Assembly: GCF_003018235.1 (NCBI RefSeq)
Contig: NZ_CP027437.1
Source of the DNA: Escherichia coli
GTDB lineage: Bacteria; Pseudomonadota; Gammaproteobacteria; Enterobacterales; Enterobacteriaceae
Strand: one strand, 5' to 3'
DNA length: 64,000 bases
Positions within the stretch are counted from its first letter, which is position 1; every line of letters starts with the position of its first letter. A program made the position numbers and the translations under genes. The notes beneath the pieces are model-generated. The model had not been told where the DNA came from, did no database searches, and worked only from the letters and a program-made list of their open reading frames with translations. Shown piece after piece: positions 49,627-51,854 of this stretch.

Positions 49627-50109
49627 TTATTCTCCGGTGTGGGGCGTTTTATTCTGTTCGCGTAATAACTCTTTTTCTCTTAAATTGAATTCAGCTACGT
49701 AATCGGCATAATCAGCGGTAATATTCAGTACATCCACTCCCGTTGCTTTATATTCTTTCATACCAAGTAAGAAAAAAGATGCCCTTATCAGTTCCGATAT
49801 TGATGAAAGCGCATCAGTCGCATCATCGGATAATCCTGAAAATTCCTGTTTCAGGGCATTAAAACGATCATCACGCATAACCCCCCCATTTTCACAATCA
49901 GCAATCAGGATAGCTTTGGCCTCATTCAGTGCCATATCAGCGGTAAGCTGTGCGTATGCCAGTGAATGCGGGATTATTGCCCCGGTATATTCCGTCTCTC
50001 TGGTAATGTGTTTTTCTGCGGTTGCTGCCGTGCATGAAATATCAATCAGCGCGTGCATTAGCGTTCTGATAGCTTCGGCGGCTGCGTCCGGACGGATGTT
50101 ATTGCACAT
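49627..50109 (-). CDS. Hypothetical protein (160 aa)
   Basis: ORF in the leftward operon. Confidence 0.45.
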   Translation of the reverse strand: MCNNIRPDAAAEAIRTLMHALIDISCTAATAEKHITRETEYTGAIIPHSLAYAQLTADMALNEAKAILIADCENGGVMRDDRFNALKQEFSGLSDDATDALSSISELIRASFFLLGMKEYKATGVDVLNITADYADYVAEFNLREKELLREQNKTPHTGE

Positions 50110-50716
50110 GTATCACCCCCTGACGAATACGGGCGGCGAATACAGCAACACAACCAGACGGGCAACGGCTACGCGCTTCGCGTTCCGTCCAGGCGGTGAC
50201 GTGGATGATTTGGGATTCTGACGCGCAAAAGATGATAAAGCGCCAGATAAAGGCAGTTTGAGAATGTACGAGGGTAGGGATAGTAGCCATGTTGGCAGCC
50301 TCCTTTATCGTTGGGATAACCCCACCGCCGGAGGTGGTAAGCTCGCTGGCGGTGGACTGTACGGAGTTACCACAACTGGCGATAAAGGAAACCAGCCCGA
50401 CCGAAGTCGGCCCCGTACAGCCCACCATTGTAAAGGTGTGCGTGTGCGCCGATACAAAAAAAGACGCGTGCGGCGTCTGTATCGCCTTTATCTCCAGCGG
50501 GGTGGTAATCCCGGCACCCGTTTTATGAGGTGCACGGGAATCATAGCCATTTCCACCAGTGGCGATCAACTGGTTTTTCTGGCGAGCTTCCTGTTCGCTG
50601 GTGGCCTCAATGGTAATCACGCGCGGTTGTGCCGTGCTCAGGGCGATAAAACGCCAGATGTATTTATTCAGGTTGTACGAGCCCCGCCCTTGCGGGTGTG
50701 TGGTATGATTTCTCAT
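50099..50716 (-). CDS. Uncertain ORF spanning a tandemly duplicated ~0.4-kb module
   Basis: Frame open from ATG 50716 (GAGG SD) to stop 50099; a second SD plus ATG at 50290 inside; DNA-level paralogy between ~50221..50340 and ~50619..50750. Confidence 0.3.
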   Translation of the reverse strand: MRNHTTHPQGRGSYNLNKYIWRFIALSTAQPRVITIEATSEQEARQKNQLIATGGNGYDSRAPHKTGAGITTPLEIKAIQTPHASFFVSAHTHTFTMVGCTGPTSVGLVSFIASCGNSVQSTASELTTSGGGVIPTIKEAANMATIPTLVHSQTAFIWRFIIFCASESQIIHVTAWTEREARSRCPSGCVAVFAARIRQGVIHVQ

Positions 50717-50813
50717 AGCTACCTCGATACTCTGGTTATCGTTGGTGGTTAGACGCCCTGCATGTGTTGCGAGCACTGCGGGGCGTTGCTTAATTTGAGT
50801 AACACCACTCAAA

Positions 50814-50895
50814 CTGTGCGCACAGATTAAAATTATGTATGCGCACACATCAATACTTAACATCTCGTTTTTTTTGCTGTATTGTGTGCGCCCAT
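50814..50895. promoter_or_regulatory. Operator cluster between divergent operons: palindrome CTGTGCGCACAG plus two related TGTGCGC sites
   Basis: 50814..50825 perfect 12-bp palindrome; 50835..50850 near-palindrome; about 50883..50893 third copy. Confidence 0.5.
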
Positions 50896-50921
50896 AAAGT
50901 CCATTTAAGTAAGGTGCATCA

Positions 50922-51119
50922 ATGTCTAGCGGTAACACAAACAACAAATCAGCAAAGAAAAATATTCGATTCCCACATGAGCTTATAGATGGAATTGATG
51001 CCAGCGTTGAACAAGAAAAATTAACTAATCCTAGTGCTAATTTTTCCGCATGGGTCTTGGATGCCTGTGGACGCAAATTAAAATATGAACAGCGCCGCAA
51101 GGCCAAAGAATCAGAATAA
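50922..51119 (+). CDS. Small ribbon-helix-helix-type DNA-binding protein (candidate island repressor)
   Basis: 65 aa; KKNIRFPHELIDGIDA...FSAWVLDACGRKL pattern; divergent from the replication operon. Confidence 0.5.
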   Translation: MSSGNTNNKSAKKNIRFPHELIDGIDASVEQEKLTNPSANFSAWVLDACGRKLKYEQRRKAKESE

Positions 51120-51176
51120 TTACTATCAGCGCCGTGGTGTGAGGTACTCCGGCGCATTGCTTTACAGGTACACACA

Positions 51177-51401
51177 ATGACCAAAGGCACATCATCACCG
51201 GAAAACGGCGAAATTACGCCAACATATGAAATTATCCGGCAAAGGCAGTCAGAAGCCTGCGCCAGACTTGAGGAAGAACTAACCAGAACAAAAATACCAC
51301 CAGCGCCGCGCTTAGCGCCACCAGAAAAATTTGCCCTTGAAGATTTTGTCGAGAAATACCCACGGCGGCTTAAATCTGGTAAAAACCGCCCGCCAGGCTG
51401 A
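51177..51401 (+). CDS. Hypothetical protein (74 aa)
   Basis: ORF downstream of the RHH gene. Confidence 0.4.
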   Translation: MTKGTSSPENGEITPTYEIIRQRQSEACARLEEELTRTKIPPAPRLAPPEKFALEDFVEKYPRRLKSGKNRPPG

Positions 51402-51665
51402 TAGCATTGTCCACCAGCAATAGAACGGTTATCATGCTCTGGCTTATGTTTGGGATCACATACACATAAGGTGCAGCGGGTTAATTGTTCAGAAAGGCGG
51501 TTCCATTTCGGGGCCGCTTTTTTTATGCCTGAAAAACCCCAATTTTGTTGTTTTCCAGTCTCACCAGGGCGAACGAATCCCCGCCCACATTCGGGCGCAT
51601 ATTCAATCTTCATGGTTATATCTCTGTATTAGTGGATGTGTGGCGGCTGCGTGCCGCCAGCGTGA

Positions 51666-51854
51666 TTAATGAACTGCCTTGCAGCTATCCTTCCAGGCCA
51701 GAACCTCGGATAAAGACCAGCCAACGGAACGACCGCCAAGTTTACGACGTGATGGGAATTGTCCGGCCTTTTCCAGGCGGTAGCGGCATGAGCGGCTAAG
51801 GCCTGTTAGCTTTTCGCATTCTTTTTCACGTATAAACCGATCAGTGCTTAACAC
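51666..51854 (-). CDS. AlpA-family excisionase / transcriptional activator
   Basis: 62 aa; LTGLSRSCRYRLEKAGQFPSRRKLGGRSVGWSLSEVLAW matches the AlpA helix-turn-helix pattern. Confidence 0.7.
   Translation of the reverse strand: MLSTDRFIREKECEKLTGLSRSCRYRLEKAGQFPSRRKLGGRSVGWSLSEVLAWKDSCKAVH

Follow-up and report, generated by a model that had tools for sequence, protein, structure and literature searches.

A probable P4-type antisense-RNA control region recombined in frame into an icd gene of a PICI-like satellite in Escherichia coli

The window analysed here, a stretch of 64,000 nucleotides (nt) from Escherichia coli (contig NZ_CP027437.1 of assembly GCF_003018235.1), contains a satellite-like island in which a 504-codon open reading frame (ORF) on the minus strand leads into the replication operon. 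This through-ORF begins just past an alpA-like gene and takes in two segments that resemble Icd-like proteins (Table 1). The original prediction had recorded the ORF but held that it could not be a real protein, and had seen inside it a tandemly duplicated module that might be either a small gene fused in frame or an untranslated leader with repeated RNA elements, analogous in position to the immunity leader of phage P4. The ORF is there, and both modules do carry a Shine-Dalgarno sequence (SD) and an ATG. An Rfam scan of the whole window (gathering scores 50 for RF01394 and 45 for RF01695) locates an isrK/P4 seqA-like RNA and a C4/P4 CI-like antisense RNA, and these lie between the modules, so the modules are not themselves the RNA elements. 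The modules encode related peptides, as had been proposed. The downstream one, icd2, matches the full NCBIfam profile NF033153 (59.7 bits, positions 1-48, curated cut-off 25 bits), whereas module 1 matches positions 1-32 of 48 only (39.9 bits) and is a truncated copy; by BLASTP the two share 11/31 identities (E=5e-8). At the nucleotide level, 52.7% of 93 nt agree in an alignment without gaps, and shuffled sequences score as high as the best local match, a single stretch of 14/15 nt (ATCTGGCGyTTTATC). Short DNA repeats are spaced 409-431 nt start to start, the motif CCAACGAUAA is present in both modules, and module 1 matches 6 of the 9 positions of the C4 target site b2. The protein and nucleotide identities point to an old paralogy that is detectable at the protein level only, and the proposed tandem duplication does not hold as a recent event in the DNA. 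Neither does the suggestion that a TGTGCGC operator recurs within the module, since there is a single 12/13 match (50442-50454, between isrK and C4, vs 50884-50896), of which about 0.4 would be expected by chance according to our estimate. Downstream, the icd2 stop overlaps ATG 50109 of the next gene, as read from the sequence, and the gene order after icd2 is the same in the annotation of a sibling island.

The two RNA genes are tied together by long-range complementarity. Loop b' of C4 (UCCUUUAUCG, 50389-50380) is complementary to isrK CUGGAGAUAAAGG at 12 of 13 positions and to CGAUAAAGGA at the icd2 SD at 10 of 10, and loop a' (50373-50367) pairs at 7/7 positions with UUACCAC in both a1 (50508-50502) and a2 (50340-50334); scored over nine-position sites, b1:b' reaches 8/9 and b':b2 9/9. 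Relatives were obtained as 120 loci from IMG/VR, fetched by an exact 19-mer at the SD-ATG of the downstream icd, a search of viral contigs with a single translated cassette having given no match. They provided 52 unique cassettes for alignment, P4 among them, and 100 unique loci for a survey of reading frames. In the covariation analysis that the original prediction had called for, the 52 cassettes comprise 21 configurations, with 13 variants of b' and 12 of a', and the four long-range helices remain 93.6-98.4% paired (a':a2 98.4%, b':b2 95.5%), each with 6-7 pairs changed on both sides. None of 500 shuffles paired as well, and slid controls gave 33-50%. In the C4 stems, pairing stands at 100%, 99.6% and 100%, and 14 pairs have changes on both sides. 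Cognate partners also fit better than non-cognate ones (8.6 vs 6.1 of 9 positions for b' and 6.7 vs 4.1 of 7 for a'). The b' loop of the window is unique among the 52 cassettes and its a' loop occurs also in L009/L010; the loops of the L001 type (named after an island of E. coli EH41) differ from those of the window and read CCUUGAUUG and GUGAGAA. The -35 TTG and the -10 TA...T of the predicted promoter ahead of isrK are unchanged in 52/52 unique cassettes, including that of P4. The leader RNA (50286-50533, minus strand) has a predicted fold of -109.7 kcal/mol (z = -5.1 vs shuffles). In this minimum-free-energy structure the second hairpin/a1 region of isrK forms a cis pairing with sequence located 3' of a2, recalling the alternative structures described for Gifsy-1 isrK.

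Table 1 Coordinates of the features discussed, numbered from the first letter of the window
Feature	Position	Strand	Basis or remarks
504-codon through-ORF	50099..51613	-	ORF-L (alpA-proximal), eta-like 205-codon part (ATG 50716) and kil-like icd (ATG 50290) in a single frame
Module 1	50576..50716	-	SD GAGG and ATG 50716, then 47 codons of a truncated icd-like gene; the eta-like ORF starts here
In-frame block of 414 nt (138 codons)	50162..50575	-	extra relative to L004/L005; blastn breakpoints
Predicted P_LE-like constitutive promoter, TTGATC-N18-TATGAT	50540..50569	-	ends 7 nt ahead of the isrK 5' end
isrK / P4 seqA-like RNA	50457-50533	-	Rfam RF01394, 63.5 bits
isrK a1 site UUACCAC	50502-50508	-	pairing and covariation
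isrK b1 site AGAUAAAGG	50485-50493	-	pairing and covariation
isrK intrinsic terminator AGACGC-CGCAC-GCGUCU + U7	50462-50478, U7 to 50457	-	terminator scan
C4 / P4 CI-like antisense RNA	50345-50432	-	Rfam RF01695, 78.4 bits, full length
C4 loop b' CCUUUAUCG	50380-50388	-	Rfam fold and pairing
C4 loop a' GUGGUAA	50367-50373	-	Rfam fold and pairing
Downstream target (P4 seqC equivalent)	50299..50340	-	complementarity to C4 loops
Downstream a2 UUACCAC	50334-50340	-	pairs with a'
Downstream b2 CGAUAAAGG	50302-50310	-	overlaps SD AAGGAGG (50299-50305), upstream of ATG 50290
icd2	50099..50290	-	complete 63-aa Icd-like gene, SD AAGGAGG; P4 kil / P1 icd equivalent
Next operon gene	49627..50109	-	160 aa; followed by a DUF4222-like gene and a RepA-like helicase/primase
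GC-rich hairpin in P_up leader	50754..50785	-	CGCCCCGCA...TGCAGGGCG, then TCTAACCACCAACGATAA
P_up, operator-overlapped promoter candidate	50814..50856	-	-35 TTGATG (50853-50848), 16-nt spacer, -10 TTTAAT (50831-50826)
Divergent YlcI/YnfO-family gene (ylcI)	50922..51119	+	NF041551 (59 bits), PHROG 949, Pfam DUF3950; antisense to the through-ORF
74-aa ORF downstream of ylcI	51177..51401	+	antisense to the through-ORF
alpA/vis-like excisionase-regulator gene	51666..51854	-	PHROG 2790, E=1.7e-17; directly upstream of the through-ORF

The presence of two icd starts raises the question as to how the second one arose. Two sibling E. coli islands, L004 and L005, carry one intact icd of 67-68 amino acids (aa) directly after the divergent YlcI/YnfO gene and have no RNA genes. 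By blastn, they are 92-94% identical to the window over 50790-50576 and 91% identical over 50161-49900, and the 414-nt block in between, extra in the window, is in turn 91% identical to L001 and 80% identical to L002. The block carries the predicted promoter and both RNA genes, isrK and C4, then the downstream target, the SD, the ATG and the opening ~43 codons of a second icd allele; both of its breakpoints fall at equivalent icd codons, just past EAR, and the downstream icd copy is 91% identical to another island type. These comparisons indicate that the repeat is a mosaic junction and that no duplication took place in situ. Because other islands, such as L118, join the cassette leader to an icd body of the module-1 type, the conserved icd core seems to be the recombination joint by which the cassette is carried between islands. 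In L001, a second C4 gene (4922-5009, 71.5 bits) without isrK sits downstream of icd in a coding sequence of 154 aa annotated 'Icd-like'. Loci L006-L125 have the same promoter-isrK-C4-leader cassette ahead of first genes that are Icd-like (PICI and P4 types; PICI, phage-inducible chromosomal island), Rha/antirepressor-like or 77 aa long, and all of these first genes start with MAT(V/I/T)(P/L), encoded by the conserved leader.

The frame that runs through the RNA genes is preserved in nearly all relatives. In 99 of the 100 unique loci, the frame in phase with the downstream ATG stays open for 77 codons or more, usually for 105-222, whereas the two other frames across the RNA genes are open for only 4-91 codons. 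Distances from isrK to the ATG of 240, 243, 282, 285, 288 and 327 nt make six of the seven length classes multiples of three, with zero stops. Many islands have a truncated icd start ahead of the cassette, with its own SD and ATG and 18, 22, 26, 43 or 47 codons, and these starts always join the promoter/isrK sequence in frame, through at least five different junctions. Since the frame stays open across relatives, length classes and junction variants, the pattern argues that translation from an upstream start through the RNA genes is under selection, while the protein itself need not matter. The judgement that the ORF cannot be a real protein is thus probably wrong as far as translation is concerned, given the open frames and the length classes that keep them, although there is no sign of a folded protein: AlphaFold2 on the through-ORF (76 homologues) gives a mean pLDDT (predicted local distance difference test) of 42, with values above 55 in the two Icd-like parts only and below 50 in the Ash region, so that nothing in the model suggests a folded product. 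The Ash label comes from Pfam Phage_ASH (PF10554), whose match in the 205-aa ORF spans aa 58-152 (nt 50545-50261). This is the stretch of the promoter, isrK, C4 and leader, and the equivalent is true of P4 eta (aa 37-161, 8704-8330); what 'Ash' captures thus seems to be the RNA cassette in conceptual translation and not a protein domain. The NCBI annotation pipeline PGAP labels such ORFs 'ash family protein' or pseudo 'Icd-like'.

What is known of related systems allows these elements to be read together. IsrK corresponds to P4 seqA and C4 to the P4 CI immunity RNA (PMC3632133; PMC4825925), and C4 and CI RNAs are substrates of RNase P (PMC5499578); c4 RNA acts at the ribosome binding site to block translation (PMC12197685). 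The logic of eta, kil, PLE and PLL has been described for P4, where eta is translated from the upstream late promoter only, which prevents termination, and C4/isrK matches inside a long ORF of Gram-negative PICIs have been likened to eta (PMC10111431). In P4 itself, Rfam places isrK at 8615-8692 and C4 at 8420-8507, the known cI/seqA positions; the eta ORF (8812..8168, 214 aa) begins within vis and continues across isrK and C4, and kil, the last 65 aa of eta, is Icd-like (76 bits on NF033153). Because Rfam detects isrK/seqA and C4/CI both here and in P4, the region can be taken as homologous, and not merely analogous, to the P4 immunity leader. The likeness extends to the order of the two RNAs, the place of the predicted internal promoter, the two-site complementarity flanking C4, a downstream target at the conserved leader AGGAGGCTGCCAwCATGGC, an AlpA/Vis gene just upstream, and a first translated gene for an Icd-like protein of ~65 aa that forms the 3' end of a longer ORF spanning the RNAs. 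There are differences as well: eta starts inside vis, whereas the window has a gap of ~1 kb between alpA and the cassette, occupied by a divergent ylcI-like pair and a candidate operator-controlled promoter; the isrK-C4 spacer measures 26 nt in the window vs 109 nt in P4; the specificity loops differ; and only the window has a truncated second icd start ahead of the cassette. An upstream Icd-like fragment suspected in P4 eta was rejected (E=3.4; NCBIfam sees one stretch only).

In the immI region of phages P1 and P7 (c4 - icd - ant), loops a' and b' of C4 mask the icd ribosome binding site, and the downstream genes are translationally coupled. The window shares with it a C4-family antisense RNA over an icd ribosome binding site and coupled downstream genes, and tblastn recovers P1-like phages whose corresponding frame likewise leads from the C4 region into icd. 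The output of P1 is an antirepressor, however, whereas here it is the satellite replication operon, and the isrK-type terminator element and the upstream icd fragment belong to the window. The isrK-orf45-anrP region of Gifsy-1 also combines read-through of an isrK terminator, a C4-like RNA (STnc1160) processed from the read-through transcript and a small ORF coupled to the gene downstream, but its short IsrK activates in trans, within an antirepressor/antiterminator cascade that has no Icd-like gene (PMC4825925). Elements of the same kind are the Gram-negative PICIs and helper-embedded PICIs that have CI/seqA homologues, with int, alpA, a replication module, late genes and C4/isrK in a long ORF; their description mentions the matches in passing, without the in-frame icd insertion, the truncated icd, the covariation of specificity or the frame that leads back to alpA (PMC10111431).

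On this basis, we consider it probable that the locus is a P4-type antisense-RNA immunity and early-control region of a PICI-like satellite, whose cassette was recombined in frame into icd and in which translation of the through-frame makes transcripts insensitive. In the quiescent island, the promoter inside the frame (50569-50540) would produce a short IsrK/seqA-like RNA that stops at the intrinsic terminator, and read-through past this terminator would give the C4/CI-like RNA. Its loops a' and b' would bind a1/b1 on the IsrK-like RNA as well as a2/b2 over the icd2 SD, and would thereby block translation of icd2. As the icd2 stop overlaps ATG 50109, such a block should be polar on the operon, and the replication genes behind would be silenced via translational coupling and polarity, leaving the island quiescent and excluding homo-immune elements. 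Upon induction, transcripts begun further upstream, at the putative operator-controlled promoter near 50830 or at that of alpA, would carry the frame through both RNA genes; translation would begin at ATG 50716 or, for this island, also at ATG 51613 directly after alpA. Moving ribosomes would then prevent folding of the terminator and of C4 and occupy the target, making the transcripts immune to the antisense RNA as in P4. Module 1, in this account, would be the 5' 47 codons of an icd hit by the in-frame 414-nt cassette, which now supply the SD and ATG of the through-frame. Processing of C4, the immunity phenotype and anti-termination by translation are all expected by homology. Both halves of the alternative posed by the original prediction would then be partly right, as there are P4-type RNAs and there is an in-frame gene, and only the modules as RNA elements drop out.

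Several points weigh against this account. In the L035/L038 class (242 nt) the frame is broken, and the through-frame is therefore dispensable there; its openness is also partly inherited along with the conserved RNA sequence. The IsrK RNA of Salmonella Gifsy-1 activates translation, so that the sign of regulation could differ. Relatives collected by a 19-mer form a biased and phylogenetically related sample, the facts on P4 rest on secondary descriptions, and promoters were all called at the consensus level, in an element known here from its sequence. The broken class is also among the arguments for regarding module 1 as a recombination scar, with the cassette working as described above and with the icd fragment and the continuity of the frame being functionless products of inheritance or chance. 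Module 1 is indeed truncated (profile positions 1-32 of 48) and other islands retain only 18-26 codons; continuity in phase with the alpA-proximal ORF is found in only about half of the island-type loci; and dN/dS (the ratio of nonsynonymous to synonymous substitution rates) is ~0.5-1 in every frame. Between the mosaic blocks it is 0.5-1.0 in all six frames with few differences, so that the protein-constrained strand is not distinguishable by this measure. We nevertheless think a scar unlikely, because at least five independent junction variants and five of the six non-reference spacer-length classes keep the frame, the SD and ATG of the fragment are retained in all variants, the leader upstream shuts two frames and spares the through-frame, and P4 is an experimental precedent of a translated through-ORF.

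Could the 205-aa product instead be a genuine two-domain Icd protein, a tandem cell-division inhibitor with Ash as its linker and the RNA matches being secondary? Two NF033153 stretches in a single ORF, the hundreds of long 'Icd-like' and 'ash family' proteins in databases and the existence of an Ash family in Pfam would speak for it. The supposed linker, however, contains two covarying RNA genes, a predicted internal promoter and an intrinsic terminator, and its amino-acid sequence varies radically as the specificity loops of the RNA do; the C-terminal third is missing from the first Icd copy, and the pLDDT stays below 50 across the Ash region. This makes such a protein very improbable. Even less credence is due to an untranslated leader in which the repeated modules themselves are regulatory RNA elements, a reading that the shared CCAACGAUAA and the 6/9 b2 positions in module 1 might favour. 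Coding ancestry explains the sequence of module 1, which agrees at 92-94% identity with the 5' coding part of intact icd genes from islands lacking C4; both modules have an SD, an ATG and a protein-profile match, and the true RNA elements are found elsewhere, between them, so that the reading is already largely refuted.

The P4-type account leaves the upstream part of the through-ORF to be considered. Its start at 51613 lies 52 nt past the alpA stop, and the position of alpA relative to the through-ORF is that of P4 vis relative to eta. Between the alpA stop and module 1, the in-phase frame has one stop, located before the ATG of the ORF, against 19 and 24 stops in the other two; in dinucleotide shuffles of the stretch the mean is 13.8 stops, and 0/2000 have one or none. 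Among the loci compared, which are related and mosaic, the window, L001, L009, L010, L039/L049, L077, L104, L123 and L125 have 0-2 stops in the in-phase frame over 800-1250 nt vs 13-27 in the others, while a different frame is nearly open in L002, L017 and L044 (frame 1) and in L029, L037, L072 and L115 (frame 2); continuity in phase with icd is seen in about half of the island-type loci. The long ORF always starts at an ATG 10-57 nt past the alpA stop, and a strong SD (TAAaggggagcatATG) often precedes it. Where it is out of phase, it ends at a TAA/TAG in the conserved leader, 8-26 nt ahead of the module-1 ATG, and the leader just upstream of module 1 shuts the other two frames and leaves the through-frame open. 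L039 has the same long ORF over a different, unrelated small regulator gene, and P0001 and many database proteins have it fused to a single icd, with no cassette. Much of this openness is expected: under synonymous shuffling, the probability of zero antisense stops in the window is 0.88 for ylcI and 0.46 for the 74-aa ORF, and the open frame antisense to these two genes is largely a compatible shadow of their amino-acid sequences. The surprise is confined to the ~158 codons without overlap and to the shared phase. The alpA-proximal frame is likely kept open for translation, and we hypothesise that this translation acts in cis against polarity.

A broader reading, which we offer tentatively and would hesitate to favour, is that an alpA-coupled 'ribosome escort' frame is selected to stay open throughout the PICI family. 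It would run for ~1 kb antisense through the divergent repressor-type genes, either fused to icd or ending before the icd start, with the cassette as an optional addition and an unfolded product, and it would serve in cis to carry AlpA-activated transcripts past Rho, terminators and immunity RNAs and on into the replication genes. The repressor might also be silenced by the convergent transcription. The YlcI/YnfO-family protein is a candidate repressor of P_up, which is overlapped by TGTGCGCAyACA palindromes (repeats D1, I10 and I18) and has TTGACA at the same place in L001. A ribbon-helix-helix fold for this protein was considered and found unsupported, the matches being to Pfam DUF3950 only and at E=0.25 to HicB-like proteins, with no relative in the PDB. 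The 74-aa ORF has homologues in other loci at 55-75% aa identity, with dN/dS values of 0.67-0.86 based on few differences, and family searches against NCBIfam and PHROG gave no match. In the P_up leader, the cassette alignment (columns ~15-50) shows that pairing of the hairpin is kept with other sequences elsewhere (GCCCCGCA/TGCGGGGC, CCCGG/CCGGG, GGCTG/CAGCC), followed by a conserved TCTAACCAcCAACGaTAA. Two further elements were seen in the upstream region. A 93-nt block between ylcI and the 74-aa ORF (51090-51182, with the inverted repeat GCGCCG...CGGCGC) is 73-97% conserved across almost all PICI-type loci despite their mosaic flanks, and a hairpin lies at ~51497-51522 on the minus strand, soon after the start of the long ORF (aaaaaaaGCGGCcccgaaatggaaCCGCCtttctg; other alpA types have a different hairpin there, such as GGCGACCGggggCGGTCGCC in L001). 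An overlapping Rfam match to ctRNA_p42d (51493-51528, plus strand) was discarded as being below threshold (22 bits, E=0.23).

The island itself is a capsid-encoding PICI-like satellite that spans ~42.9-53.5 kb of the window. It carries genes for an integrase, alpA, the divergent ylcI-like pair, the icd/RNA cassette, a DUF4222-like protein, a RepA-like helicase/primase, a single-stranded DNA-binding protein (SSB), a PerC-like regulator, the major head protein and decoration proteins, a gene content that appears to be that of a Gram-negative, capsid-forming PICI satellite. The integrase is flanked by roxA, no tRNA gene was seen near the island, and the chromosome matches Escherichia at 98.8% identity. 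An identical arrangement with identical specificity was found in the draft assemblies P0002 and P0010, whereas among complete E. coli genomes none has 80% or more of the 951-nt query at a single site, and the highest value is 79%. Unrelated to the island, the window also contains the small RNA C0299 (10252-10330, minus strand; a perfect full-length Rfam match with 111.9 bits).

The control system described here is already known, and the locus is an unusually clear and well-preserved example of the P4/P1 type with a specificity of its own. Its importance is that a P4-like antisense RNA system with two target sites probably forms the switch for quiescence and immunity in a satellite of the PICI type, and that the immunity cassette seems to pass from island to island through recombination in the conserved core of icd. 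There is also a problem of annotation: at least 1,939 database protein clusters match the through-ORF, those listed being 295-629 aa long and named 'Icd-like' or 'ash family'. Those with PF10554 are read across the RNA genes; many of the rest are long ORFs from alpA to icd that have no cassette. AlpA is the helper-induced activator of such islands, for which a global repressor has not been identified (PMC6092414), and the locus provides two candidates that can be tested: one is the C4-like RNA, the other the divergent YlcI-like protein together with its palindromic operators. If the tentative reading of the alpA-coupled frame is true, it would generalise P4 eta to the whole satellite family and would bear on the question of the global repressor of Gram-negative PICIs.

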